A DNA stretch of 35,987 bases, from positions 1-35,987 of the forward strand of contig JACRFR010000023.1 of the NCBI GenBank assembly GCA_016212635.1, written 5' to 3'. The stretch is from Candidatus Liptonbacteria bacterium. GTDB taxonomy: Bacteria; Patescibacteriota; Minisyncoccia; UBA6257; 2-01-FULL-56-20. The notes beneath the pieces were generated by a model, which saw nothing but the letters and a program-made list of their open reading frames with translations, searched no databases and was not told where the DNA came from. The position numbers were made by a program, and so were the translations under genes. Shown here in pieces: positions 15,525 to 35,987 of the stretch (position 1 is its first letter; every line of letters begins with the position of its first letter).

Positions 15525-17972
15525 ATGATTTCCAAGAAACTAGTAATTCCTCTAGACAAAGTCACCCTACGTGACGTGCCAAGCGTCGGCGGCAAAAATG
15601 CGTCCCTGGGCGAACTGCTGCACGATCTGGCCCCCCAAGGAGTCCGTATTCCCGGCGGTTTTGCGGTTACGGCGGAGGCCTATCGCTTCTTCTTACAAGA
15701 AACTGGCCTGGATAGGACCATCCGCCGCACTCTCAAGGGCCTGAACGTCCACGATCTGGCCGACCTGGCCCGGCGCGGCCTCTCGGTGCGCGAGGCGATC
15801 CGCGGCACGGAATTGCCGAAACCACTGGCCCAAGCGATCCGCAGATCCTACGCACAGATGGAACGGCACTATGGCCGTAAAGTGGACGTGGCGGTGCGCT
15901 CCAGCGCGACGGCGGAAGACCTGCCCGGGGCGAGCTTCGCCGGCGAGCATGAAACCTTCTTAAACATGCGCGGCGCCGAGGAGGTGCTGGCCGCGGTCCG
16001 CGCGGCGATGGCATCTCTCTTTACCAATCGAGCGATCTCCTATCGCGTGGACAAGGGCTTTGACCATTTTAAAGTGGCTCTCTCGGTCGGCGTCCAAAAA
16101 ATGGTTCGGTCGGATCTGGGTTGCTCCGGCGTGATGTTCACCCTGGATACCGAGTCCGGTTTTAAAGACGTGGTTCTGATCAATGGCGCCTGGGGCTTGG
16201 GTGAGTTGATCGTACAGGGGGAGGTTACGCCCGACGAATTTCTGGTTTTTAAACCGACCCTGGCGGACGGTCGGCACGCGCTGATCTCTAAACGCCTGGG
16301 CGTCAAGAATCGCAAGTTTGTGTACAACTCCAATCGCGGCTTGCACAGCATCAAGCTAGCCAAGACCTCGCCGCGGGAGCTGGGCACATTCGTGCTAACC
16401 GAGAATGAAGTGCTGACCCTGGCCCGCTGGGGCGCGGCGATTGAAAAGCACTACAGCGCTCGTGCTAAGCGCTGGACGCCCATGGATATCGAGTGGGCCA
16501 AAGACGGCCGCACCGGGGAACTCTTCATCGTCCAGGCGCGGCCGGAAACGATCCATGCCGGGCGGGACTACGCCAAAGTCCGGCAGTATACGCGCACCCA
16601 AGACGCTCCGGTCCTGGTCCGAGGAGCGGCGGTCGGAAGCGCCATCGCGTCCGGGACCGCGCGGGTAATTTTAGACGCCAAACATATCCGCGAGTTCAAA
16701 CCCGGCGAGGCGCTGGTTACGACCATGACCGATCCGGACTGGGAGCCGATCATGAAGATCGCGGCCGCCATCGTAACCAACAAAGGGGGACGGACCAGTC
16801 ACGCCGCGATCGTCTCGCGCGAGTTGGGCATCCCTTGCGTAGTGGGTACCGAGCGCGCCACCCGCAAAATTAGAACCGGTCAGAAGATAACCGTGGACGC
16901 ATCGGGTAATGAGGGTCTGGTCCTCCAAGGCACGGTGCCGTTTCACATCACCGAGCATGACGTGAAGAAAATGCCCCAGACGCGCACCGAGATCATGGTC
17001 AACGTGGCGATTCCGGATAGCGCCTTCGCCGCTTCTTTCCTGCCGGTTCGGGGGGTAGGGTTGGCCCGGGAGGAGTTCATTATTGCTTCCCAGATCGGCG
17101 TTCACCCGTTGGCCGCGCTCCATTTTAAAAAATTACCGCCTGTTCTGCGCCGCAAGATCCATAAACAAATGGCTGGCTGGACCGACCCGGTAGAGTATTA
17201 TGTGGACAAGCTGGCCTACGGCATCGCCAAGATCGGCGCCGCCTTTTATCCCCGGCCGGTCATCGTACGCTTCTCGGATTTCAAAACTAACGAGTACCGC
17301 ACCTTGCCGGGCGGAGAGCTGTACGAACCCAAGGAAGAGAATCCTATGATCGGCTGGCGGGGCGCGTCCCGTTATTACCATCCCGATTTCGCGCCGGCTT
17401 TCGCCTTGGAGTGCCGGGCGCTCCGAAAAGCCCGCACGGACATGGGGCTGACCAATATTATTCCGATGATACCTTTCTGCCGTACGTCGGAGGAGGGTCG
17501 AAAAGTAGTGGCGCTGATGAAAAAACACGGCCTGGATCGAGCCACGGACAAAACTTTAAAGGTTTATGTGATGTGCGAAATACCCGCGAACGTAATTCTG
17601 GCAGACCAGTTCTTAAATATATTCGATGGCATGTCCATTGGCTCCAATGACCTGACCCAGCTTACGGTGGGCATTGATCGCGATGGTAGCGCCTTGGTGC
17701 GGGGTATCGCCAACGAGAACGACCCTTCGGTCCGGCAATTAATCACAGAGGCGATCCAGCGCTGTCGGGCGCGGCATAAGTACATCGGGATCTGCGGCCA
17801 GGGGCCGTCGGATATGCCGGACTTCGCGCAATTTCTAGTTAAACAGGGGATAGAGAGCATGTCGCTCAATCCGGACTCGGTCGTGCCCACTTTGCTCGCA
17901 GTGGCCAGACTGGAAAAGAAAATAGCGAAGAGCGAAAAGCGAAGAGCGAAAAGCGAAAAGAGAGAGAAATAA
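15525..17972 (+). CDS. ppsA: phosphoenolpyruvate synthase
   Basis: VGGKNASLGE, AVRSSATAEDLP…SFAG, DIEWAKDG, QARPET, GGRTSHAAIVSRELG, EENPMIGWRG, SIGSNDLTQ. Confidence 0.97.
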   Translation: MISKKLVIPLDKVTLRDVPSVGGKNASLGELLHDLAPQGVRIPGGFAVTAEAYRFFLQETGLDRTIRRTLKGLNVHDLADLARRGLSVREAIRGTELPKPLAQAIRRSYAQMERHYGRKVDVAVRSSATAEDLPGASFAGEHETFLNMRGAEEVLAAVRAAMASLFTNRAISYRVDKGFDHFKVALSVGVQKMVRSDLGCSGVMFTLDTESGFKDVVLINGAWGLGELIVQGEVTPDEFLVFKPTLADGRHALISKRLGVKNRKFVYNSNRGLHSIKLAKTSPRELGTFVLTENEVLTLARWGAAIEKHYSARAKRWTPMDIEWAKDGRTGELFIVQARPETIHAGRDYAKVRQYTRTQDAPVLVRGAAVGSAIASGTARVILDAKHIREFKPGEALVTTMTDPDWEPIMKIAAAIVTNKGGRTSHAAIVSRELGIPCVVGTERATRKIRTGQKITVDASGNEGLVLQGTVPFHITEHDVKKMPQTRTEIMVNVAIPDSAFAASFLPVRGVGLAREEFIIASQIGVHPLAALHFKKLPPVLRRKIHKQMAGWTDPVEYYVDKLAYGIAKIGAAFYPRPVIVRFSDFKTNEYRTLPGGELYEPKEENPMIGWRGASRYYHPDFAPAFALECRALRKARTDMGLTNIIPMIPFCRTSEEGRKVVALMKKHGLDRATDKTLKVYVMCEIPANVILADQFLNIFDGMSIGSNDLTQLTVGIDRDGSALVRGIANENDPSVRQLITEAIQRCRARHKYIGICGQGPSDMPDFAQFLVKQGIESMSLNPDSVVPTLLAVARLEKKIAKSEKRRAKSEKREK
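17924..17958 (+). repeat. AGCGAAR heptamer x5 forming the ppsA C-terminal tail
   Basis: AGCGAAG AGCGAAA AGCGAAG AGCGAAA AGCGAAA. Confidence 0.8.
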
Positions 17973-20841: not shown

Positions 20842-22005
20842 ATGCCTCCCGAAATTATCCCGGATCAATTTGGTCCCGAGTACGTTATTCAAGTATCCGA
20901 TTCCTCGGTGGGTATGAAAGGCTTTTTGGTGATCGACAACACCGCGCGCGGCCCGGGCAAGGGCGGTCTGCGCATGACGCCGAACGTCACTGCCGAGGAG
21001 GTCTTCCGCTTGGCGCGGGCCATGACCTGGAAAAATGCGCTGGCGGATATTCCTTTTGGCGGCGCCAAGTCCGGCATTGTATGGGAAGCGAGGAGCGAAG
21101 AGGGAAGAGCGAAGAGTGAAGAACGAAAAAGGAGCTACGTCCAAAGTTTTGCCCGGGCGCTCAAACCACTACTGATTAAAAAATATATCGCCGGTCCGGA
21201 TGTGAGTTCCGGCGAAAGAGAAATGCAGTGGTTCGTGGAGGCGGTGGGGAATTGGCGGGCCGCGACCGGCAAGCCGGCCAACTACTGCATGAGCGTTTTT
21301 GGCAAGGAGGGGGAGCGCTGCGGCATTCCCCACGAGTTCGGCTCGACCGGTTTCGGCGTGGTCAAGTCCGCCGCGGTGGCGGCCGAGATCGCGGGGATTA
21401 ATTTGAAAGGCGCGAGGGTGGCCATCCACGGTTTCGGCAATGTGGGCACTTTCGCCTACCAGTACTTGACCGAGATGGGCGCCACGGTGGTGGCGCTGGC
21501 TGACCGGCTGGGAGCGGTTTACTCGTCGCGCGGTTTTGAGAAGCGGGCGATAGCCGATGCCATCCAAAACAAGAAAGAACTAACAAAAGTTTTTCCCAAG
21601 AATAAAATACCGTCGGAGGATTTCTGGTCCTTGCCGGTGGATATTCTGATCCCGGCTTCGGTGACTGATGTTATTCATGAAAAAAATTATCGCGGCATCC
21701 AGGCGCGCCTGATCGTAGAAGGCGGCAATATTCCCATGCGGGAAGAGATCGAAGAAAAGCTTTTCGCCAAAGGCGTTGTGATCGTGCCGGACTTTGTGGC
21801 CAATGCCGGCGGGGTGATCTCCTCCTATGCGGAGTACCGCGGCTATAACCCCAAGCGCATGTTCGAGCTGGTGGAGCGGAAAATCACCAAGACTACCCGC
21901 CGGGTCCTGGAATTAAGCGCCAAGCGGAAAATAAGCCCCCGGCGAGTAGCGCTAGAATTGGCCCAAAAACTGGTTCGGGAACGAATGGCTAAGCGGCGCA
22001 GCTAG
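20842..22005 (+). CDS. Glu/Leu/Phe/Val dehydrogenase
   Basis: GPGKGGLR, MTWKNA, GGAKSG, GPDV, STGFGV, HGFGNVG, EGGN, PDFVANAGGVISS. Confidence 0.93.
   Translation: MPPEIIPDQFGPEYVIQVSDSSVGMKGFLVIDNTARGPGKGGLRMTPNVTAEEVFRLARAMTWKNALADIPFGGAKSGIVWEARSEEGRAKSEERKRSYVQSFARALKPLLIKKYIAGPDVSSGEREMQWFVEAVGNWRAATGKPANYCMSVFGKEGERCGIPHEFGSTGFGVVKSAAVAAEIAGINLKGARVAIHGFGNVGTFAYQYLTEMGATVVALADRLGAVYSSRGFEKRAIADAIQNKKELTKVFPKNKIPSEDFWSLPVDILIPASVTDVIHEKNYRGIQARLIVEGGNIPMREEIEEKLFAKGVVIVPDFVANAGGVISSYAEYRGYNPKRMFELVERKITKTTRRVLELSAKRKISPRRVALELAQKLVRERMAKRRS
21087..21128 (+). repeat. AGCGAAG-like heptamer x6, in-frame in the dehydrogenase
   Basis: AGCGAGG AGCGAAG AGGGAAG AGCGAAG AGTGAAG AACGAAA (42 nt). 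Confidence 0.75.
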
Positions 22006-27271: not shown

Positions 27272-28279
27272 ATGGATCTTGTGCCGGATCCGGAAACATC
27301 GATCATGCGCAAATCCATCCTAGAATTTCCGCGGCAGTTCGAGTTTGAGCCGGTCATCGCGAACGCGGATAAGTTCCGGCGATCGCCGCACGTCATCGTC
27401 TGCGGCATGGGTGGGTCGCACCTGGCTGGCGACTTTTTGAATCCGATCGAGCCAGAAATAAATCTGCGTGTTTGGAGTGACTACGGTTTACCGCCAGTCC
27501 CAGAGGATGAATTGCAGGACTCCTTGATCATTGTGAGTTCCTACTCCGGCAATACTGAAGAGACGCTGGATGCTTATCGCGCGGCCCGGGAGCGAGGTCT
27601 GTCACTGGCCGCGGTGGCGGTCGGTGGTAAGCTTCTGGAGTTGGCCAAGAAGGATGGCGTGCCATATGTCCAACTGCCGGACACCGGTATCCAGCCGCGA
27701 ATGGCCTTGGGCTTCAGCTTGCGTGCCATGCTCGCCTTAATCGGGGACCAAGACGGCCTGCAAGGGACGCGGGGGCTGGCCCAGGACCTGCCCGCCGAGG
27801 TTTTGGAGTCGGAGGGGCGCGACTTGGCCAAGTGGCTCAAGAACTACGTACCGGTTGTTTACGCTTCCGACTCTAACCGGTCGCTGGCTTACTACTGGAA
27901 GATAACCTTAAACGAGACCGGTAAGATCCCGGCTTTCTATAATGTTCTGCCGGAGCTGAATCACAACGAGATGAACGGCTTTGATGTTAAGTCCGGTTCT
28001 CGCCCACTGGCCCAGAACTTCGCTTTTATTTTCCTTTCAGATACCGACGACCACCCGTTGGTTCAAAAACGCATGGCGATATTGAAATCTATGTACCAAG
28101 ACCGCAAGCTGCCGGTCCGAACCATCCCACTTGTAGGTCAAACCAAGTATCATAAGCTGTTTACCAGTGTCCTTCTGGCAATTTGGACCGCGTTCTGCGT
28201 CGCCGAGCAATATGGCCTGGAACCGGAGCAGGTCCCGATGGTGGAGGAATTTAAAAGGCTAGTGACTACTGACCGATGA
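27272..28279 (+). CDS. bifunctional phosphoglucose/phosphomannose isomerase (SIS domains)
   Basis: CGMGGS, SSYSGNTEETL, GGKL, QPRMA, WKITLNETGK, PELNHNE; start may be 27305. Confidence 0.92.
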   Translation: MDLVPDPETSIMRKSILEFPRQFEFEPVIANADKFRRSPHVIVCGMGGSHLAGDFLNPIEPEINLRVWSDYGLPPVPEDELQDSLIIVSSYSGNTEETLDAYRAARERGLSLAAVAVGGKLLELAKKDGVPYVQLPDTGIQPRMALGFSLRAMLALIGDQDGLQGTRGLAQDLPAEVLESEGRDLAKWLKNYVPVVYASDSNRSLAYYWKITLNETGKIPAFYNVLPELNHNEMNGFDVKSGSRPLAQNFAFIFLSDTDDHPLVQKRMAILKSMYQDRKLPVRTIPLVGQTKYHKLFTSVLLAIWTAFCVAEQYGLEPEQVPMVEEFKRLVTTDR

Positions 28280-28303
28280 CCATTGACTATTGACTGTTGA
28301 CTA
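28262..28303 (+). repeat. heptamer array x6 (NTGACNN orientation)
   Basis: GTGACTA CTGACCG ATGACCA TTGACTA TTGACTG TTGACTA. Confidence 0.8.
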
Positions 28304-28353
28304 GGGGGCGGGGAGTAAGGGAAAAGCCCGACTTCCTCCGAAGGACCTCCCCC

Positions 28354-28460
28354 GAGGTTCACCCTCCCCAATATTCATTCTTCGGTTCCCGGAGGTTGAA
28401 CCTCCTAATATCGTTCTGGTTTCTCCCCGAGGTCCGTCCTCCTTTGGAGGTCGAACCTCC
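28354..28460. repeat. cluster of four short GAGGT-NNN-ACCTC hairpins
   Basis: 28354-28366, 28391-28405 (GGAGGTTGAACCTCC), 28429-28441, 28446-28460 (GGAGGTCGAACCTCC). Confidence 0.7.
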
Positions 28461-28498
28461 CGACATTAAATCTACCCGGACATATTCCTAAAATTAAA

Positions 28499-28610
28499 GG
28501 CGCCCCTAAAAAGTTATTCCCTGAGCCCGTCGAAGGGTAGCTTTTTGGCGGGTACAGGCATGGCCCTCGACAAGCTCGGGCAATAAAATCGGTGGTTTCC
28601 GAACAGCGCC
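28499..28610 (+). mobile_element. ~120-bp MITE-like element, copy 2 (left end eroded)
   Basis: 28508-28610 is nearly identical to 1932-2035. Confidence 0.8.
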
Positions 28611-28712
28611 CCGCGGCTTGGGGTATTGATTCCACAATTCGCCGCCCGCCTCTTTCCGTTGTAGAATATATTTGGCGTTAGTTCTGCGAACTGCGCACTA
28701 CGAACTCTCTTC

Positions 28713-28757
28713 ATTCGCATTATTACCTCCCCGATTAGCGTTATTAGCGATTACTCT
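28713..28757 (-). repeat. 45-bp dispersed repeat, reverse copy abutting the nuclease ATG
   Basis: Reverse complement reads AGAGTAATCGCTAATAACGCTAATCGGGGAGGTAATAATGCGAAT. Confidence 0.85.
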
Positions 28758-29504
28758 ATGCAGAAGCTCTCCCGCTCCAAGATCGACCTGTTCCACGAGT
28801 GCCAGCGCTGTTTTTGGCTGGAGGTCAAGCACGGCGTGAAACGCCCCCCGGGATTCCCATACACCATCAATAGCGCGATCGACTGGCTTCTGAAGCAGGA
28901 GTTCGACGAGTATCGGGCGCTTGGCCGGGCGCACCCCATTATGGAGGCGGCCGGGATCGGAGCGGTGCCTTATGAACATCCGAAGATCAATGAGTGGCGG
29001 CACAACTTTACCGGTATCCGATTTGAGCACAAGCCGACTGACTTCTTGGTCTTTGGCGCGGTGGATGACATTTGGGTTAACCCGGCAGGGGAGTTAATTA
29101 TTGTGGACTATAAATCCACCGGTTCGGTTCAGCACAAAATCTACGATGAGTACCGCCGCCAACTGGAGGTTTACCAGTGGCTCTTCCGCCAGAACGGATT
29201 TACGGTTTCCGAGACGGGCTATTTCGTTTTTGCTCGGGTCAGCAAGGCCCACGGTTTCTCGGCGCACGCGGATGCCGGACCGGCGGAGGGCGAGGCCCAT
29301 GAACGCGCGCTTTTGCCCTTCGATATTTTTGTCGAGCCCTTAACCGGCAACCCATCCTGGGTGGAAGGCGCCTTAGCGGACGCCCACCGGGTATTGGACT
29401 CGGATACGCCGCCTGCCCCGGGCGGCGATTGCGAACACTGTAAATATCGCCGCGCCGCGAATGAGCATGCCGCAGGGAAAATGTCACATCCCGCCAGTTC
29501 TTAG
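28758..29504 (+). CDS. PD-(D/E)XK nuclease (RecB/Cas4-like, four cysteines)
   Basis: LSRSKI…CQRCFW, GAVDDIW, IIVDYKS, QLEVY, CEHCKY. Confidence 0.88.
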   Translation: MQKLSRSKIDLFHECQRCFWLEVKHGVKRPPGFPYTINSAIDWLLKQEFDEYRALGRAHPIMEAAGIGAVPYEHPKINEWRHNFTGIRFEHKPTDFLVFGAVDDIWVNPAGELIIVDYKSTGSVQHKIYDEYRRQLEVYQWLFRQNGFTVSETGYFVFARVSKAHGFSAHADAGPAEGEAHERALLPFDIFVEPLTGNPSWVEGALADAHRVLDSDTPPAPGGDCEHCKYRRAANEHAAGKMSHPASS

Positions 29505-29511
29505 CGGAGAT

Positions 29512-29549
29512 CATCTATTCTATTGTTCTTGAGAACAATAGAATAGATG
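29512..29549. repeat. 38-bp palindrome with 18-bp perfect arms
   Basis: CATCTATTCTATTGTTCT-tg-AGAACAATAGAATAGATG. Confidence 0.92.
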
Positions 29550-29571
29550 GAGGGTCTTTGTGCTAATGATT

Positions 29572-29931
29572 ATGCCTGCGCCGATTAGATCTAAGGAATA
29601 TTACTGGACATTCCATGCGCGCAATAAAATGCGCCAGTACCAGTTGTCGGAGCAAAGGGTACGGCGGGTGCTCCACTCCCCGGCGCGGATCGAGGAGGGG
29701 ATTGCGCCCAATACTATTGCGGCCATGCAGGTGGTTCCCGCGCCCAAGCGCCCCTATGAGATCTGGGTCATGTTGCAATCTGTAAGTCGAAAGTCAGAAG
29801 TTAAGGGTCAAAAGTCAAAGGTCAAAGGTCACGAGTCAAAGATCATTTCCGCCTGGCGCTATCCCGGCCGCACCAAGCCCGGCGATCCTATTCCAGCGGA
29901 GATATTACGAGAGCTAAGAATGCTGGCGTGA
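29572..29931 (+). CDS. hypothetical protein, DUF4258-like, with an in-frame heptamer insert
   Basis: WTFHARNKMRQY…VRRVLHSP…EIWVM…KIISAWRYPG; heptamer x8 at 29785-29840. Confidence 0.7.
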   Translation: MPAPIRSKEYYWTFHARNKMRQYQLSEQRVRRVLHSPARIEEGIAPNTIAAMQVVPAPKRPYEIWVMLQSVSRKSEVKGQKSKVKGHESKIISAWRYPGRTKPGDPIPAEILRELRMLA

Positions 29932-29978
29932 TTTAGCGCAACTTGTCCCACTTGCCTCCGTTCCGTCCCTACGGCACC

Positions 29979-30072
29979 TTACCACATTATCTGGCTATGA
30001 CCAGATAATGTGGTAAAGCAATAGTGGCTCCACACCACCATGTTATCTAGCTATGACCGGATAGTGTGGTAA
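29979..30072. repeat. two tandem ~38-bp palindromes, family B, upstream of PaaX-like gene 2
   Basis: TTACCACATTATCTGG-ctatga-CCAGATAATGTGGTAA (29979-30016) and a degenerate copy at 30035-30072 whose right arm carries TGGTAAAAT. Confidence 0.88.
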
Positions 30073-30092
30073 AATAAGTTTGATCGAAAAGC

Positions 30093-30665
30093 ATGGCTGG
30101 AATTATCCGAAGAGGGGGTAACTCTCATAAAATACTTAACACCCTGGCAATCAGCGCTGGTTTTTTGGCTATTTCACTCATTTCTCCAGGTTCCAGTGGC
30201 GTTATCGTTCAGGGATTGGTTCGGGGTTACTTTCGGAGAAGGTCTTTTGAGAAACACAGGTTTTTGAGAGACATTCGGAGGTTGCAGCGGTTAGAGATGC
30301 TAGATTTTCGCGAGCTGGCGGATGGAAATATCAGGATAACTCTGTTGAAAAATGGCCGACGCTTTGTCTTGACCGACAAATTGGATAATCTGAAAATCAA
30401 GCGACCGATAGCGTGGGACGGTAAATGGAGACTGGTAATATTCGACATTCCTCATGATCAGCGCCGCGCCCGGGATGCGTTTCGCGAGAAACTTACCGAC
30501 CTAGGCTTCCATCAGCTACAGAAAAGCGTTTTTATTATCCCATTCCCTTGCGAAAAAGAATTGGATTTTATTATGACCTACTGGAATGTCCAAGACCACG
30601 TTTTATTGCTGTATGTCAGTTCTTTTGAGGGAGAAGCCAAACTCAAGCATCACTTTGGGTTATAG
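30093..30665 (+). CDS. PaaX-like protein: winged-HTH plus Cas2/VapD-like domain (190 aa)
   Basis: IRRLQRLEML…ITLLKNG wHTH; WDGKWRLVIFDIP…RDAFREKLTDLGFHQLQKSVFIIPFPC. Confidence 0.88.
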   Translation: MAGIIRRGGNSHKILNTLAISAGFLAISLISPGSSGVIVQGLVRGYFRRRSFEKHRFLRDIRRLQRLEMLDFRELADGNIRITLLKNGRRFVLTDKLDNLKIKRPIAWDGKWRLVIFDIPHDQRRARDAFREKLTDLGFHQLQKSVFIIPFPCEKELDFIMTYWNVQDHVLLLYVSSFEGEAKLKHHFGL

Positions 30666-30712
30666 CTCGTGTTCCTTAGGCGACAGCCCGCCCCCCTCTG
30701 TTTCTTTGCTAC

Positions 30713-30758
30713 TTCTACACCACGCTATCTAGCCATAGCTAGATAGCGTGGTGTAGAA
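30713..30758. repeat. 46-bp palindrome, family B, downstream of PaaX-like gene 2
   Basis: TTCTACACCACGCTATCTAGC-cata-GCTAGATAGCGTGGTGTAGAA with 21-bp perfect arms. Confidence 0.92.
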
Positions 30759-30801
30759 AAGAAGTGGGCTGGGGAGGGAAGGGGAGGGAAGGATGGGGAT
30801 A

Positions 30802-30829
30802 TTGAGCGAGTTTCGGATACTGGTATAAT
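30802..30829 (+). promoter_or_regulatory. extended -10 promoter, leaderless type
   Basis: TTGAGC-16-TATAAT with TG extension, 6 nt before ATG 30836. Confidence 0.55.
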
Positions 30830-30835
30830 CAGCCC

Positions 30836-31300
30836 ATGCCTGGTTATCGCGCCGAATATCCCTGGAGAAGCACGGATAGAGCGGCAGGTAGGGATATGCA
30901 GCGCTTAATGCTATTCGAGCAGAGGTCGGGCGAGATCGGGCAGATGCTCCAGGGGACATTCAACCTCCCCGAGGAAACAGCTCGGCGTCTGGAACGATTG
31001 CTCTTTGATACAGCCGTCGAGCCACAAGAGACAGTTGACCAAATACGCGCGAGCGAGAAATCTTTAGTTTATCACCCTCCTTACTTCCAGGTTCAGGGGG
31101 TGAGCGATTCGGCGTTTCGGTGTCCGGATGGGAAAAGTTTTCTGGATTTGTTTACACGCGATAAATTAGCGGAGCACTCATCTCCGGAAACATTGGTCGC
31201 AGGAATCGAAGTGGCGGTGGAGTACGAGATGGAAAATTTGTCTAAGATCAGAGAAGCCATGGCAAGCGCCTCTCGGGAGCGGAGAGAATTGGAACATTAA
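30836..31300 (+). CDS. hypothetical protein (154 aa)
   Basis: ORF with promoter in leaderless position; no family recognised. Confidence 0.65.
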   Translation: MPGYRAEYPWRSTDRAAGRDMQRLMLFEQRSGEIGQMLQGTFNLPEETARRLERLLFDTAVEPQETVDQIRASEKSLVYHPPYFQVQGVSDSAFRCPDGKSFLDLFTRDKLAEHSSPETLVAGIEVAVEYEMENLSKIREAMASASRERRELEH

Positions 31301-31334
31301 TATCCGAAATCTGGCAGAATATTTGTTTAGCACC

Positions 31335-31916
31335 ATGACTAAAAAGCGCTGGTATGGAATAATTCTAGTGGCGGTGATAGTTTTAGTATTAGCGGTAGTT
31401 TGGCCCAAACCGGGCCAGGCACCGTCCCCGCCACCCCCTGGTATTTCAGCCGATAACCAAACTCCACCCACCAACATGTTTATCACCAGCCCTGCTTTCA
31501 ATAATCAGGAAACCATTCCCCGGAAATTCACCTGTTCTGGAGGCGATATCAATCCTGAATTGCAAATTCAAAATGTTCCGACTGGGGCTAAATCACTGGT
31601 CTTGATCGTAGATGACCCAGACGCCCCGGGTGGTATATTTACCCACTGGACCATCTGGAATATAGGCTCCAAAACAACTGTGGTGAAAGAAGAAAGCAAG
31701 CCGCCGTCCGCGGTGGAGGGTACGACAGATTTTGGCCGGATCGGCTGGGGCGGGCCGTGTCCACCGCCCGGCACGCCCCATCGGTACTTCTTCCGACTCT
31801 ACGCCGTGGATACCCTGCTTGATTTGCCGGCTGGTGCCAGCCGAAAACAACTCGAGCATGCCATGGAGGGGCACGTCCTCCAGGCCGCCGAGCTCATGGG
31901 TATTTTTAGCCGCTGA
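31335..31916 (+). CDS. YbhB/YbcL family (PEBP/RKIP-like) protein with N-terminal membrane anchor
   Basis: ITSPAF, DINPEL, SLVLIVDDPDAPGGIFTHW, GPCPPPGTPHRYFFRLYAVD. Confidence 0.93.
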   Translation: MTKKRWYGIILVAVIVLVLAVVWPKPGQAPSPPPPGISADNQTPPTNMFITSPAFNNQETIPRKFTCSGGDINPELQIQNVPTGAKSLVLIVDDPDAPGGIFTHWTIWNIGSKTTVVKEESKPPSAVEGTTDFGRIGWGGPCPPPGTPHRYFFRLYAVDTLLDLPAGASRKQLEHAMEGHVLQAAELMGIFSR

Positions 31917-31928
31917 TCTTTTATCCCC

Positions 31929-32189
31929 ATGAACGAACGAGTCATAGACAGTTTGCCGGATGACCGTGTGCCCGAATTGGGCAAGACGCTTGTGCTTAAC
32001 GTGTGGTGGGTGGATGGCAGGAAGCGCCAGCGCGTACGCTTTTGGGCCACACCGCCCGAGGGGAAGGAGTCCGAGGTTATGGAGGATACATATGAAGAGT
32101 ATGAACCCGGCAAGTGGCGAAAAGTGCCGGGCGAGCCAGAGGCCGATTATGGCCCAGCGCCCACTAGAAATTCTGGTAATCCGGGCTAA
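31929..32189 (+). CDS. hypothetical protein (86 aa)
   Basis: ATG 12 nt after the preceding stop; plausible composition. Confidence 0.5.
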   Translation: MNERVIDSLPDDRVPELGKTLVLNVWWVDGRKRQRVRFWATPPEGKESEVMEDTYEEYEPGKWRKVPGEPEADYGPAPTRNSGNPG

Positions 32190-32245
32190 ACTGCTATCCC
32201 CAGTCCGTCTTGACAGAAATATCGGATTGCTTAATACTCCCATCA

Positions 32246-32341
32246 ATGAAAGAGAGTCTTTCCATCTGTAGCACTGCCCCAGGCGCCCGTTACTTTGCGT
32301 TTTACTTTTTTTATCCCGCCACCGCGGCCAGGGAGTCTTAA
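32246..32341 (+). CDS. putative Phe/Tyr attenuator leader peptide (31 aa)
   Basis: MKESLSICSTAPGARYFAFYFFYPATAARES*; seven of eight consecutive residues are F/Y; TTGACA (32210) then 17 bp then AATACT upstream. Confidence 0.7.
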   Translation: MKESLSICSTAPGARYFAFYFFYPATAARES

Positions 32342-32380
32342 AGTAGCGAAAAGCGAAAAGCGATAAGCGAAAAATAAGAG

Positions 32381-32404
32381 CCCCCTGACCGCAGGGGGAT
32401 TTTT
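32381..32404 (+). terminator. attenuator-type intrinsic terminator
   Basis: CCCCCTG-accg-CAGGGGG-ATTTTT; the 5' arm can alternatively pair with 32329-32340. Confidence 0.7.
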
Positions 32405-32502
32405 GTATACGTTGCGATTCGGATGCTGGTCGGGTCAAGCGACCTAACTATCCTCCGGGTCGGGACCGCAAGCAATTGCCAACCGAACCGGGCGAGCTCT
32501 TT

Positions 32503-32880
32503 ATGAAAAGAATAATGCCGTTTTTTTCCGCGATTTCTGCGGACGGCGAGAATCCGGAATCGGTGCGATTACTAAACGTAATTGCCACCGAACCGGATAG
32601 CGGCGCAGGTTTCTCTTTCTGCTGGTGTCTAGGGGTGCGCACCGGTAGTTTTCGCCAAAACGGAAACTACGGGTCCATCTCGTTATATCAGCAGGAGGGA
32701 GGCTTAATTCTCCGTATAGGTGATTCTGCGGAGAACTTCCCAACCCGGATACATAACGGCCAGTCCGTAGTGCTCTGGGTCGGCCGTGCCGCTCTCGCCA
32801 CCCGCCGGCGCGAGATCGTGCGGGCCATCGTGGCCTATGCGATCTCCGGCGACCCTTCGGTCCTGGGAGACGGCAAGTAA
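32503..32880 (+). CDS. hypothetical protein (~125 aa)
   Basis: ORF from ATG 32503 followed by a strong hairpin; no family recognised. Confidence 0.5.
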   Translation: MKRIMPFFSAISADGENPESVRLLNVIATEPDSGAGFSFCWCLGVRTGSFRQNGNYGSISLYQQEGGLILRIGDSAENFPTRIHNGQSVVLWVGRAALATRRREIVRAIVAYAISGDPSVLGDGK

Positions 32881-32909
32881 CACCTGCCGTTTCCCTAAGC
32901 CAATCCAGC

Positions 32910-32942
32910 CCCAGTGGTCCGATTCAAGATCGGACCACTGGG
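32910..32942 (+). terminator. 14-bp-stem hairpin, possible terminator
   Basis: CCCAGTGGTCCGAT-tcaag-ATCGGACCACTGGG; weak U-tract. Confidence 0.45.
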
Positions 32943-32967
32943 CGCAGTTCTTATCTGAAGATGACTG

Positions 32968-33055
32968 CCCGTGCAGTCATTCCGAGGTATTCCGAGGAAT
33001 CTCGTAATCAAAAAATCAGATTTTTCGCACGACCCAGAATGACTAACTGCACGGG
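32968..33055. repeat. REP-like composite hairpin (GTCATTCCGAG…GAATCT…AGATT…AGAATGAC)
   Basis: Closing arms CCCGTGCAG/CTGCACGGG and GTCATTC/GAATGAC. Confidence 0.6.
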
Positions 33056-33060
33056 ATATC

Positions 33061-33091
33061 ATCTTCAGGTCGGAGACTTATCCCGACCTGA
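33061..33091. repeat. hairpin repeat, copy 1 (ATCTTCAGGTCGGA…GACCTGA)
   Basis: 14-bp identity with 33747-33760. Confidence 0.65.
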
Positions 33092-33251
33092 CTCCAGATC
33101 ACCATGTCAGTTAAAATATCCAATATTTCATTTAGACCAGAACAAACCCCTTCTTGGATAAGGGTCGGTTTGGTTTGTCTGCGGTCTAATAAGCCAAGCG
33201 CCTCTCCTCCGGGAAAGGCGTCAGCGTTTTCCGGAGAAAGCACTTTGACGC

Positions 33252-33644
33252 ATGAAAAACCAAAATTACGAATCTGTTTGCGAACGGATAATCACCGGCT
33301 CCGGAATCGGAGTGGTGGGCGACTGCCAAGCATATCTCGGACCAGCCATCCGCTGGCTGGCCGGAGTAGAAAACGGGAGTTACTGCCAGGTGCGAACCGG
33401 TACGGCAATCCACTTGGTCTGGCTGCGCCAAGAATTGGGCCGGTTAGCCGCCTCGCTCGCGGTCGGGCAACTGACGGCGAACGAGATGGACGGCTTGTTG
33501 CGCATGCGCGGCAAGCTGGCCGAACCCTTGCCGCGGATCCCGTTCCATCGGCGCGCCAGGATCATTCGATTTTGCCAGGCGCTACAGGTCGTCTGCCATA
33601 TTGGCTCGAAACGCGCCCGCAACATGCTCCGTGGCAGGGGATAG
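33252..33644 (+). CDS. hypothetical protein (130 aa)
   Basis: ATG-started ORF between two hairpin repeats; no family recognised. Confidence 0.5.
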   Translation: MKNQNYESVCERIITGSGIGVVGDCQAYLGPAIRWLAGVENGSYCQVRTGTAIHLVWLRQELGRLAASLAVGQLTANEMDGLLRMRGKLAEPLPRIPFHRRARIIRFCQALQVVCHIGSKRARNMLRGRG

Positions 33645-33746
33645 TATGCCCCGCCGATTCACCTTGCGGCTCCCGGAAAGCACGCGCCTCCGGGAGCCGC
33701 ACATAATCTAACTTCTTATCCGAAGATTGATCCGCCCCGCGTGCCA

Positions 33747-33773
33747 ATCTTCAGGTCGGAAGTATTGACCTGA
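33747..33773. repeat. hairpin repeat, copy 2 (ATCTTCAGGTCGGA…GACCTGA)
   Basis: Direct repeat of 33061-33091. Confidence 0.65.
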
Positions 33774-33892
33774 TACTTGCACCTTTACATGTTTCCGGTT
33801 TGGGAGAAGATAGTGCGAATTTGCGCGAATCTATACGCGAATCTACGCGAATAGAATATTCTCCCAGGCCGGAAAGGAGCCGCCTGGCGCGT

Positions 33893-34075
33893 ATGACACC
33901 ACAAGAAACATTAGAGACCGTCACGCCCAGGATGGCCGACGGGGTTCCACTCAACCCCGAGGAATTCTGGGCTGGCGCCGAGGAGTTGCTCCCCGGCACT
34001 ATCGAAGAGGAGCTCTTCCCCGAGGCCGCCGCCGAGGCGGCCAAAAGGAAAGAAAGGGAAGAGTGCTGGGCATGA
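33893..34075 (+). CDS. small acidic hypothetical protein (60 aa)
   Basis: ATG 33893 with upstream AGGAG; the longer ORF start is derived from a GCGAAT repeat tract (33814-33852). Confidence 0.4.
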   Translation: MTPQETLETVTPRMADGVPLNPEEFWAGAEELLPGTIEEELFPEAAAEAAKRKEREECWA

Positions 34076-34134
34076 AAACCCGAGTGAGCGCAAACAACGC
34101 GCTCGCTCGGGTCCCACTTAACAATTTGAAATTT

Positions 34135-34170
34135 ACCCCCTCCTTTTCTAAGGAGGGGGTAAGGGGAGGT
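34135..34170 (-). repeat. REP-like hairpin, DUF559-associated family
   Basis: ACCCCCTCCTT-ttct-AAGGAGGGGGT-AAGGGGAGGT. Confidence 0.75.
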
Positions 34171-34199
34171 CGAATTGATATGCCAAAGCAATACCACCC

Positions 34200-35555
34200 A
34201 TGAACAATAAGAATTTTAAAACCGTTCTCATTCTCGGTTTCGGCCGCTTCGGCAAACTTCTGGCCGAGATCCTTAAGCCAGATTTTGACGTGGCCGTTTT
34301 CAGCCATCGGGACGTGCAGGCCGAGGCGGCTACTCTTGGCGTCAAGCAGCTGCCGCTCCAGGAAGGCCTGCGCCGGGACGCCGTGTTTTTCGCCGCCCCA
34401 ATCTCCAAATTTGAGCAGGCGTTGAACGAATGTCTGCCATTTCTCAAAGAAGCCAGGCCGAAACTTCTACTCGACGTTCTCTCGGTCAAAACCTACCCCA
34501 AAACTGTTTTCGAGCGTTTCCTACCTCCCGAGCAGGAAGCGCTTTTGACCCATCCCATGTTCGGTCCCGACAGCGTCCGACTGAACGGCGGCCTGAAGGA
34601 TCTGCCTATCATGCTGGACAAGTTCCGAGCATCCGAGGAAAGTTATCGCTTCTGGTCGGAGTATTTCCGGGGTAAAGGCCTGCGCGTGGTCGAGATGTCC
34701 GCCGAGGAGCACGATGAGCATGCCGCCCGGAGTCAGGGAGTGGCGCACTTCATCGGCCGGGTGTTGGAGGACCTGCGTTACTCACCGACCCCCATAGACA
34801 CGCTGGGTGCTCGGAAGTTACTGGAAGTGGAAGAGCTCGCGCGCAATGATGCCTGGGAGCTGTTCGCTGACCTTCAGAATATGAATCCCTACACCAAAGC
34901 CATGCGGGTGGAGTTGGGCGGAGCGGTGGAGCGAATTTACAACCGGCTTCTGCCCAATCGGGTTGATCCCGACACGCTGGTGGTCGGTATCCAGGGTGGT
35001 CGGGGTAGTTTCAATGAGCAAGCGGCAAGGTATTATCTGGAACGTACCGGCGTCGAACAACACGACATCCGATACCTACATACTACCGAGAACGTGCTCC
35101 AAGCCCTCCACGAAGGTAATGTCGATCGCGGGCAGTTTGCGATCCACAACTCGGTCGGCGGAGTGGTCGGAGAAAGCATCGAGGCCATGGCCAGGTATAA
35201 GTTTCGCATCGTGGAGGAGTTCGCGATTCAAATTTCTCACGCGCTAATGGTTCATCCGGACGCCGATCTGGCCCGAGTGGATACCATCATGACTCATCCC
35301 CAGGTTTTGGCGCAGTGCAAGCGAACGCTCGCCGAGAAGTATCCGCGGCTCCGGCAGGTGAGCGGCGAAGGGGACTTGATCGACCATGCCCTGGTGGCGG
35401 AAAAACTCGGCCATGGGGAACTGCCCAAGAGCATCGCCACCATGGGCAGCGCGCTTTTGGCCGAACTGAATAATCTCCATATTATCGAAGATCACCTGGA
35501 AGATCAGAAAGAGAACTTTACCAGCTTCCTCTGGGTCGAACGCCCTACAAGTTAA
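34200..35555 (+). CDS. bifunctional prephenate dehydrogenase (TyrA-like) / prephenate dehydratase (PheA-like), no ACT domain
   Basis: N-term GFGRFG, DVLSVK, THPMFGPD, EEHDEHAARSQGVAH; C-term QGGRGSFNEQAA, HNSVGGVV, THPQVLAQC, EDQKENFTSF. Confidence 0.9.
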   Translation: MNNKNFKTVLILGFGRFGKLLAEILKPDFDVAVFSHRDVQAEAATLGVKQLPLQEGLRRDAVFFAAPISKFEQALNECLPFLKEARPKLLLDVLSVKTYPKTVFERFLPPEQEALLTHPMFGPDSVRLNGGLKDLPIMLDKFRASEESYRFWSEYFRGKGLRVVEMSAEEHDEHAARSQGVAHFIGRVLEDLRYSPTPIDTLGARKLLEVEELARNDAWELFADLQNMNPYTKAMRVELGGAVERIYNRLLPNRVDPDTLVVGIQGGRGSFNEQAARYYLERTGVEQHDIRYLHTTENVLQALHEGNVDRGQFAIHNSVGGVVGESIEAMARYKFRIVEEFAIQISHALMVHPDADLARVDTIMTHPQVLAQCKRTLAEKYPRLRQVSGEGDLIDHALVAEKLGHGELPKSIATMGSALLAELNNLHIIEDHLEDQKENFTSFLWVERPTS

Positions 35556-35622
35556 TCCCTCTGACCTGGCCGCAATCGTGTCCCCTCCGCCCCTGTCTCC
35601 CTCCGCCTCCCGTCCCCGCCCT

Positions 35623-35745
35623 GGCGCTGTTTGGAAACCACCGATTTTATTGCCCGAGCTTGTCGAGGGCCATGCCATGTACCCGCCAATAAGCTACCCT
35701 TCCACGGGCTCAGGGAATAACTTTTTGACGTTTTCGAACAGCGCC
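35623..35745 (-). mobile_element. 123-bp MITE-like element, copy 3 (both TIRs intact)
   Basis: GGCGCTGTTTGGAAAC…GTTTTCGAACAGCGCC (14/16 inverted match). Confidence 0.85.
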
Positions 35746-35855
35746 CCCCTACTCTTGCCATTCTCTATGAGATTACGTACTAGTACATGAGTACAGTACA
35801 CGCGCGCCGCCCTGTCCCCACTGGCCGGTTGAGTCCGGTTAAGTCTCAGTATTTT

Positions 35856-35987
35856 CTAATCGACAAATGAGCCCGAAATAGCCTGGGCGTAGATGGTCGG
35901 TAATTGAGGCTTGAAATGGATGGTTTTGAATAATTCGGCCTTGGCTTTTTGCATGGCAACAGCACACTCGTTATCGCTTTGCCCCAA
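35856..35987 (-). CDS. C-terminal fragment of an unknown gene running off the window
   Basis: Open frame from the window edge: LGQSDNECAVAMQKAKAELFKTIHFKPQLPTIYAQAISGSFVD*. Confidence 0.45.
   Translation of the reverse strand: MGQSDNECAVAMQKAKAELFKTIHFKPQLPTIYAQAISGSFVD

Follow-up and report, generated by a model that had tools for sequence, protein, structure and literature searches.

Contig JACRFR010000023.1 of Candidatus Liptonbacteria, analysed here as a complete contig of 35,987 bases (the window), raises the question of whether a small-genome bacterium controls aromatic amino acid synthesis through a translated leader and, if so, which gene such a leader would govern. A sequence-only reading had proposed that positions 32210–32404 hold a leader peptide rich in Phe and Tyr with complete attenuator architecture, matching a TyrA-PheA fusion gene 1.8 kb downstream. 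pheL and trpL are textbook cases of ribosome-mediated attenuation; control by a leader peptide needs coupled transcription and translation and reports the charging of tRNA. Our analysis indicates that the element is probably a ribosome-mediated transcription attenuator of the pheL/aroR kind and part of a widespread family of aromatic (Phe/Tyr/Trp, or F/Y/W) leaders of Patescibacteria-type aro operons. The parent assembly comprises 1.02 Mb in 65 contigs and is 94% complete. The genomes of relatives measure 0.5–1.3 Mb, and groundwater metagenome runs contain DNA near-identical to the window, which fits an ultra-small groundwater bacterium as host; the earlier label of a likely member of the Candidate Phyla Radiation (CPR) agrees with the genome size and with the relatives.

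Leader ORF, RNA pairings and predicted switch

The promoter-like site, the F/Y-rich open reading frame (ORF) of 31 codons, the two antiterminator halves, the terminator and the heptamers described earlier are all present at the positions given for them. A −35 hexamer TTGACA (32210–32215, + strand), the sole + strand TTGACA in 31000–35987, is followed after 17 nt by a −10 hexamer AATACT (32233–32238, + strand), the two matching the consensus at 10 of 12 positions. Within the final 8 kb of the window (28000–35987) no other site fits TTGACA-N16-18-NANNNT, and TTGACA also precedes the equivalent leaders of the related genomes G024, G014 and G075 and of the metagenome loci L031 and L061. The −10 hexamer lies just 7 nt from the ATG, as it does in G024 and L031, so the transcript would begin at or adjacent to the start codon and the leader mRNA, provided that the promoter is real, would be leaderless or nearly so.

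The leader ORF (32246–32341, + strand; ATG at 32246, TAA at 32339–32341) has 31 codons and would be translated into MKESLSICSTAPGARYFAFYFFYPATAARES. The putative control codons TAC TTT GCG TTT TAC TTT TTT TAT (32291–32314, + strand) encode YFAFYFFY, residues Y16–Y23 of the leader, with four Phe and three Tyr among eight residues, and they align with the F/Y run of the covariance model R2 described below. Among 21,103 ORFs or ORF tails of 8–60 codons on both strands of the 1.02-Mb genome, the leader alone holds seven F/Y residues in an eight-residue window. Six of eight is found in five small ORFs of the genome, none of which has a terminator.

Directly behind the run, at a Pro codon, opens hairpin 1:2 (32314–32334, + strand), in which 32314–32320 pairs with 32326–32334 with a 2-nt bulge, as seen both in folding and in the covariance model alignment. 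Region 2, the 5′ strand of the predicted antiterminator (32324–32340, + strand), comprises GCGG, CAGGG and GTCTTA and overlaps the final codons of the ORF together with its TAA. The 3′ strand, region 3 (32375–32392, + strand), comprises TAAGAG, CCCCCTG and ACCGC and thus contains the 5′ arm and loop of the intrinsic terminator CCCCCTG-ACCG-CAGGGGG-ATTTTT (32381–32404, + strand; seven pairs, six of them G-C, and a loop of 4 nt). This is the sole terminator-like site on the + strand from 30160 to the end of the window, and it reads as a terminator on the − strand too. The pairing that had been proposed earlier, CAGGGAGTCTTA (32329–32340) with TAAGAGCCCCCTG (32375–32387), turned out to be the core of the predicted antiterminator: CAGGG (32329–33) pairs with CCCUG (32383–87) and GUCUUA (32335–40) with UAAGA (32375–79), and the helix reaches further, GCGG (32324–32327) pairing with CCGC (32389–32392).

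The RNA 32246–32404 was folded with a 29-nt ribosome footprint forced single-stranded and the A site placed on each F/Y codon. With the ribosome on the seven F/Y codons in turn, the probability of the terminator was 0.00, 0.00, 0.00, 0.00, 0.15, 0.00 and 0.56 (mean 0.10). It rose to 1.0 once the ribosome had reached the stop codon (0.93 if the extended helix was scored) and was 0.23 in the free RNA. In the constrained folds region 2 was free during a stall on the F/Y codons and covered once the ribosome stood at the stop codon. The check suggested by the sequence-only reading, a comparison of masked and unmasked folds, gave the expected switch. As a control, the 66 nt separating the F/Y run from the terminator stem were shuffled 200 times with dinucleotides preserved; the mean with a stalled ribosome was then 0.97 ± 0.09, a value as low as that observed arose in 1 of the 200, and no shuffle produced a switch. 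The free RNA 32240–32410 folds at −49.1 kcal/mol (z = −2.2), and 4 of 200 shuffles were equally stable. In the folding model, then, the element is a thermodynamic terminator/antiterminator switch, and it very probably represents a functional Phe/Tyr leader-peptide attenuator.

The proposed mechanism would run as follows. Transcription would start from TTGACA-17-AATACT at or beside the AUG, and a ribosome would translate the 31-codon leader. When Phe-tRNA or Tyr-tRNA is scarce, the ribosome would stall within Y16–Y23 and cover region 1 (32314–32320), upon which region 2 (32324–32340) could pair with 32375–32392, sequester the 5′ arm of the terminator and let the polymerase read on. With a good supply, the ribosome would reach the TAA and cover region 2, the terminator at 32381–32404 would form and transcription would stop. 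Transcripts that read through would cross 1.8 kb of orphan sequence before reaching the TyrA–prephenate dehydratase fusion. With its mixture of Phe and Tyr codons, the leader might sense both amino acids.

The loop of the antiterminator, described earlier as filled with AGCGAAA heptamers, indeed consists of four such units, AGCGAAA/AGCGAAA/AGCGATA/AGCGAAA (32345–32372, + strand). They belong to a repeat dispersed throughout the genome, which has 27 runs of at least three AGCGA[AT]A-like units, and the spacer heptamers match 11 further places in the genome; the heptamers are not particular to the leader. The spacers of related leaders are A-rich and of similar length and unrelated sequence.

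Two further samples bear on the locus. In a second sample of the same study (X2), contigs tile 31900–34600 at 100% identity except for 33658–33721, and the order leader–spacer–fusion is therefore not an accident of assembly. A freshwater run of another study (X4) contains a strain about 92–96% identical, represented by two 250-nt contigs at a depth of 3. Across 31930–32176, within the gene of 86 amino acids (aa) that lies upstream of the leader, it differs at 20 of 247 nt. Across 32160–32407, where its contigs stop, the changes are at 32192, 32204, 32206, 32243, 32255 together with 32257, and 32358, with a CC insertion behind 32193. The leader frame is intact: 32255 and 32257 turn codon 4 from Ser to Cys, and the A>G change at 32358 falls in a heptamer. 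No change touches either promoter hexamer, the F/Y run, either hairpin or the terminator. The resulting one difference in 150 nt (32258–32407), against 20 in 247 nt of the 86-aa gene, is significant by Fisher's test (p = 0.0008).

Leaders ahead of homologous operons

When 31300–32900 was searched as DNA against 41 related genomes, matches were confined to the PEBP gene and the heptamers and did not include the leader; even the nearest relatives have diverged too far for an alignment at the nucleotide level. Since no alignable leader was found in those genomes, we searched for leaders by way of the neighbouring fusion gene, whose protein has 554 confirmed relatives among metagenome contigs and 571 among species-representative genomes, at 41–59% identity. 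The loci searched were 160 centred on the fusion (80 from metagenomes and 80 from named genomes) and, in addition, 125 genomes of the window's family. F/Y-rich upstream ORFs ahead of homologous tyrA-pheA operons, the occurrence of which had been put forward as a check, were found in the metagenome, named-genome and family loci alike.

Sequence of 150 nt or more upstream of the fusion was available at 70 metagenome loci, and five of these carried seven such leaders: MIKTSKFYFYFFYPAKGG... in L061, which shares the peptide core FYFFYPA with the window; the tandem pairs MKTLAVNKFYFFYTRLEGGEIC and MKNILSKHNLFYFYYFPSGGLYW in L079 and MRKINTINFYFFYYPQKAA and MDNRIKTNFFYFYYPAEAG in L090; ...WFSYFYFTSPTGR... 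in L044; and ...NKNYFWFYFTSPKGS... in L031. All seven have a promoter-like site, a hairpin opening at the codon behind the run and then a terminator, the 3′ arm of hairpin 1:2 recurring as that of the terminator. Across the 488 kb of the 80 metagenome loci, the combination of an F/Y run with a perfect-stem terminator occurred seven times on the gene strand and once, weakly, on the other; all seven gene-strand cases lie upstream of aro genes. The 80 named-genome loci (924 kb) yielded 16 leader ORFs in 15 loci (at least five F/Y in seven residues), to which L136 was added by the model. Their records are titled Patescibacteria group, Candidatus Saccharibacteria, Levyibacteriota, Woesebacteria, Peribacteria, Gracilibacteria and Obscuribacterales, and several are titled 'uncultured Gammaproteobacteria', the titles being given as deposited.

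The first gene behind the leader encodes a DAHP synthase in L031, L079, L090, L183, L143, L133 and L129, and weakly in L170. In L044, L136, L120, L126, L159 and L193 it encodes a PfkB kinase, followed by a DAHP-synthase-like gene, and in L176 it is the fusion itself. The L061 leader is followed by a short ORF and a chorismate-mutase-like stretch and then by an aminotransferase gene. The fusion is uncommon in the family to which the window belongs, with 5 of 60 other genomes carrying it. The G024 leader consists of TTGACA-16-TATACT, MNRPAQRFYCYFMRQPLSRKGLF (MNRPAQRFYCYFMRQ...) and a terminator, and precedes genes for a chorismate mutase and a GATase_4 protein and then the fusion. The leaders of G014 and G075, ...TFCFSFSFIFSKPREG... 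(...FCFSFSFIFSKPREG...) with a 13-bp terminator, precede a racemase gene, an ORF, the fusion and an aminotransferase gene. Across the relatives only the F/Y run and the RNA pairings are kept, and the N-termini and the residues behind the run vary freely, following the hairpin sequence. At equilibrium the predicted switch is as clean in L079a, L090a and L090b as in the window, and partial in L031, L044 and G024.

For a structural comparison, MAFFT alignments of the leaders (A1–A3) were set aside, as they misaligned the hairpins, and a two-sequence seed with re-alignment by Infernal was used instead. The first model, R1, was seeded with L061 and L090a, and its top matches were all seven metagenome leaders. 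The second, R2, was built from these seven re-aligned leaders, with the window left out of the training. R2 matched the window at 32297–32405 (+ strand) with 30.7 bits and an E-value of 0.0028, the next match scoring 16.7 bits, and the window element was the top match in the whole genome. In 1.05 Mb of loci R2 gave 29 matches at E ≤ 0.5, of which 23 were F/Y/W leaders, the window element being the weakest of the 23. Over the 125 family genomes it gave four matches at E ≤ 0.05, none with an F/Y ORF; the G024, G014 and G075 leaders came from reading intergenic DNA and not from R2.

In a 29-row alignment of the R2 matches, which is fitted to the model and so favours pairing, helices 1:2 and 3:4 were paired in 94.7% of cases, with compensatory changes at 8 of 10 pairs and 53 cells changed on both sides. 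Their covariation was matched by 0 of 500 shuffles, and slid controls were 42–72% paired. In the family alignment helix 1:2 was 92.7% paired, with compensatory changes at 5 of 5 pairs. Helix 2:3 was paired in 80.9%, against 74.5 ± 2.2 in shuffles, with a covariation score of 0.232 against 0.138 (0 of 500). In nearly every row the region-2 pentamer is identical to the 3′ arm of the terminator (GCGGG, GGAGG, GAGGG, GGCGG), as a 2:3 antiterminator demands.

R2 also matches leader-like elements with other peptides: MKTKVLSIIVSSSLFLLPPKIGGRMK, and MKSILNVIIVIIIIPSYSASF with an Ile/Val run. The non-aromatic matches are L060:9027-9124, L176:5085-5187, L192:2934-3022 (− strand) and L157:7359-7480, 7947-8060 and 9530-9629, and further matches precede a class IV aminotransferase gene and a LeuA-like gene. 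Branched-chain leader attenuators may therefore also occur in these genomes.

Compared with the other R2 members, the window element shares the F/Y run followed by a Pro, Thr or Ser codon that opens hairpin 1:2, the A-rich spacer, the terminator, the association with a TyrA–prephenate dehydratase (PDT) operon, and a region 2 in which the terminator's 3′ arm is repeated. It differs in being the weakest-scoring F/Y member, in lying in DNA of 50% G+C as against 33–49%, and in having a spacer made of its genome's own heptamer repeat. The window leader is also the only one to precede an orphan ORF, rather than a DAHP synthase gene, a PfkB kinase gene, a chorismate-mutase/aminotransferase cluster or the fusion.

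The Rfam model Phe_leader (RF01859) aligns over its full length at 32273–32408 (+ strand) with 22.1 bits (E = 1.1 in 2.2 kb and 0.13 in 251 nt), which is far under its gathering score of 55 and leaves the element outside the family as Rfam defines it. The window had no Rfam match at gathering level, an E-value search of 32100–34300 gave sub-threshold matches only, and six related loci had none at the gathering score except one tRNA. The leader family is uncatalogued in Rfam 15 at gathering thresholds. Like the Escherichia coli pheL-pheA attenuator (RF01859), the window element has a short ORF with an aromatic run, hairpins 1:2, 2:3 and 3:4, a terminator and a stop codon inside region 2. Unlike pheL-pheA, it mixes Phe and Tyr control codons, probably has a leaderless start, and stands 1.8 kb ahead of a TyrA-PDT fusion gene instead of a chorismate mutase–PDT gene, in a small-genome groundwater bacterium and not in a gammaproteobacterium. 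A published account describes 53 pheL genes, all of the gamma subdivision (PMC3082878).

A closer parallel in peptide sequence is described for Corynebacterium glutamicum, where, according to a summary of Neshat et al. (2014) in the review PMC11802643, the leader aroR with Phe-Tyr-Phe stands ahead of aroF, a DAHP synthase gene. The same review states that the AroR leader responds to Phe and not to Tyr (PMC11802643). As far as that description goes, the window leader resembles aroR in its mixed Phe/Tyr peptide and in its predicted control of the aromatic pathway by ribosome stalling. It differs in its longer F/Y run (7/8) and in that a DAHP synthase gene follows aroR, while none was found in the window's genome; the likeness is one of description only. 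Putative attenuators ahead of tyrA operons and other kinds of TyrA fusion are listed in PMC1173090. Full-text literature searches gave no paper tying leader-peptide or transcription attenuation to CPR or Patescibacteria.

Side by side with the leaders themselves, the tandem loci have a module of about 75 nt (…GAGCCG.G..ACGAATAG…) repeated between the leaders and the DAHP synthase gene (L090:1555-1690 and 1804-1940; L079:4761-4858). Its outer stem differs between the L090 copies with complementarity kept, and it has no Rfam gathering match; a further RNA element placed in series with the attenuators is one possible reading.

The downstream spacer, the fusion gene and rival explanations

The fusion gene noted earlier 1.8 kb downstream of the leader was recovered at 34200–35555 (+ strand): it encodes 451 aa, a TyrA-like dehydrogenase fused to a prephenate dehydratase (Pfam PDH_N, 33.2 bits; PDT, 125.5 bits), and its frame is unbroken and scores well for coding. 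Only 430 nt of contig follow the gene, which leaves any downstream partners outside the window. Between leader and fusion (32405–34199) lies a spacer without a recognisable gene, which contains orphan ORFs, hairpins, an inverted repeat and two short dispersed repeats. From 32405 to 34200 there is no further terminator-like site on the + strand and no TTGACA, so read-through could reach the fusion gene. Presumably the fusion is the target of the switch, a reading that has to be inferred because the 1.8 kb holds orphan ORFs only and the upstream pathway genes were not found.

The three orphan ORFs have no Pfam match: one of 125 aa (32503–32880), one of 130 aa (33252–33644) and one of 91 aa (33800–34075). 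In 5.8 billion clustered proteins the first had no homologue but itself, and a homologue search with the third gave none. The second had no homologue in 150 genomes of the order; its sole match in 1.84 billion representatives, to a low-complexity tandem-repeat protein in eight stretches, was judged spurious. Codon-usage scores of two of the spacer ORFs were 0.12–0.15 per codon, compared with 0.05–0.19 for small real neighbours and 0.27 ± 0.11 for long genes, and on this measure the spacer ORFs may or may not be protein-coding. A tblastn search of 31900–34300 for remnants of relatives' operon genes, with all ORFs of 10 related loci, returned the start of the fusion and the 86-aa gene only. When the whole genome was searched with DAHP synthase, PfkB kinase and aminotransferase sequences, no match reached E < 0.01.

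Several observations weigh against the attenuator reading. The nearest recognisable aromatic gene is 1.8 kb from the leader, on the same strand but with orphan ORFs between, whereas the distance from leader to first gene was 0–390 nt in every relative inspected. No aro gene is the first gene downstream of the window leader, the next ORF being that at 32503–32880, which lacks homologues. A search of the 94%-complete genome found no DAHP synthase I, chorismate synthase or CM_2, so the switch could be a relic. No Shine-Dalgarno sequence lies upstream of the leader ATG, so that translation of the leader depends on the presumed leaderless start; and the loose pattern TTGACA-N16-18-NANNNT is not enriched, with 72 sites in the genome compared with 61–71 in three shuffles. 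The significance of the R2 match across the whole genome is marginal (E = 0.078), and a second match in the genome, C25:724-795, reaches 29.3 bits and has no F/Y ORF. To these are added the fitted alignment behind the covariation figures and the low Phe_leader score. The equilibrium switch is absent in G014 and G075, where the terminator probability was 0.94–0.96 in all states, and is not clear-cut for L061 and L079b, so the simple switch model does not fit every presumed member. The sequencing runs that match the locus include no RNA run.

The missing pathway and the distance to the fusion are what an alternative explanation takes as its starting point. On this account the element would be a relic attenuator, descended from a working aro-operon leader. 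The genes that once opened the operon would have been lost or have given way to 1.8 kb of orphan DNA, and the element would now act mainly as a constitutive terminator or insulator behind the PEBP and 86-aa genes, with no meaningful target. The absence of DAHP synthase I and chorismate synthase extends to the four other fusion-bearing genomes of the family (G024, G014, G075 and G074; 81–99% complete, Pfam HMM search), and a dispersed repeat occupies the leader's own spacer. Decay, however, would be expected neither to leave the F/Y run, hairpins and promoter hexamers unchanged in X4 while the neighbouring gene differs at 8% of sites, nor to leave the switch thermodynamically intact. The spacer, despite its heptamers, has the length usual for the leader family, and the fusion ORF is preserved. 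We therefore regard a relic as unlikely. G024 keeps a chorismate mutase gene beside the fusion, the window's genome holds one class I/II aminotransferase gene on another contig, and the fusion-bearing family seems to retain the terminal Phe/Tyr branch only.

The compactness of the unit, with promoter, short ORF and terminator within about 195 nt and nothing aromatic immediately downstream, would also suit a free-standing small gene for a hydrophobic 31-residue peptide or a small RNA, unrelated to amino acid sensing. Such a gene would be expected to conserve its product, whereas across the relatives the F/Y run and the RNA pairings are kept and the rest of the peptide varies; moreover, the elements precede aro genes in more than 20 loci, often in tandem, which makes this explanation improbable. 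Least probable of all is a chance T-rich stretch, possibly a decayed arm complementary to the mobile-looking heptamer repeat, beside the terminator of the upstream operon: the F/Y codons do pair partly with the AGCGAAA repeats in the free-RNA fold, but the F/Y density unique among the small ORFs, the failure of all shuffles to switch, the independent match by R2, the conservation in X4 and the recurrence of FYFFYPA in L061 speak strongly against it.

The attenuator reading proposed earlier thus gains support from folding under a ribosome mask, from the leaders of relatives and from the R2 match. With a mechanism well known from pheL and aroR, the locus contributes one more case, not a new concept. 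What is unusual is the context: an orphan spacer of 1.8 kb, a loop of heptamers and a lone terminal-branch enzyme with the rest of the pathway not found. An intact attenuator in a largely auxotrophic ultra-small bacterium would mean that such organisms still regulate the few biosynthetic steps they have kept. The locus would also be a natural experiment in which the leader and the last pathway enzyme were kept while the genes normally between them are gone, and R2 provides a sequence-level marker for aromatic operons in such genomes. More speculatively, and with considerable doubt, the switch may have outlived most of its pathway, so that a leader sensing Phe-tRNA and Tyr-tRNA governs a lone TyrA–prephenate dehydratase by way of a lineage-specific 1.8-kb transcript that perhaps encodes new small proteins. 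If this were true, an ultra-small symbiont would scavenge chorismate or prephenate from a host or community and use a classical attenuator to time its conversion into precursors of Phe and Tyr.

Neighbouring features and further observations

The spacer is single-copy in the genome except for a GCGAATC-type repeat (33815–33853) and a dispersed palindrome (34133–34162). Its single-copy features include a perfect 14-bp hairpin (32910–32942) and an inverted repeat with 28-nt arms (32955–33068). As the latter occurs once in the genome, its interpretation as a miniature inverted-repeat transposable element was dropped. The outer ends of this inverted repeat, TTCTTATCTGAAGAT ... ATCTTCAGGTCGGA, recur 765 nt further on around a 19-nt core (33711–33763). 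The palindrome, situated just upstream of the fusion gene, has perfect 13-bp arms, TTACCCCCTCCTT-ttct-AAGGAGGGGGTAA, and at least 11 further copies in the genome. Behind it stand a GGAGG and a mini-ORF of seven codons, MPKQYHP (34181–34203), whose TGA overlaps the ATG of the fusion (ATGA); in relatives the fusion likewise overlaps the preceding real gene.

Upstream, the 86-aa gene (31929–32189) lies between the PEBP gene and the leader and has no Pfam family. A counterpart 47.5% identical adjoins the PEBP gene in G006, and we therefore consider the ORF a real small gene. The window has no tRNA genes. In G014 and G075, some 340 nt devoid of ORFs are conserved behind the PEBP gene (L029:3425-3790 and L028:5245-5610). 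The stretch has its own TTGACA-type promoter and terminator, with no Rfam gathering match on L029, and could be a structured RNA gene. The ORF behind the L061 leader (L061:4317-4571) contains three copies of the motif (I)TNDASLDY(A), and the DAHP synthase frame of L079 has one more at its C-terminal end (L079:5690-5725); the motif may reflect a repeated nucleotide element.

Elsewhere in the genome, runs of the AGCGAAG/AGCGAAA type often form inverted pairs (repeat, loop, complementary repeat), and many lie in frame inside long open frames. Examples are positions 17924–17965 and 21087–21128 of the window, G000:C8:10797-11073, C32:2973-3900 and C51:14512-16437. A 72-nt heptamer insert stands in frame behind the HKIYGPKGVGAL motif of a cysteine-desulfurase-like gene. 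A DUF4258-like ORF at 29560–29931 contains a heptamer-encoded SRKSEVKGQKSKVKGHESK stretch, and the gene that follows it (30093–30665) has a PaaX central (Cas2-like) domain.

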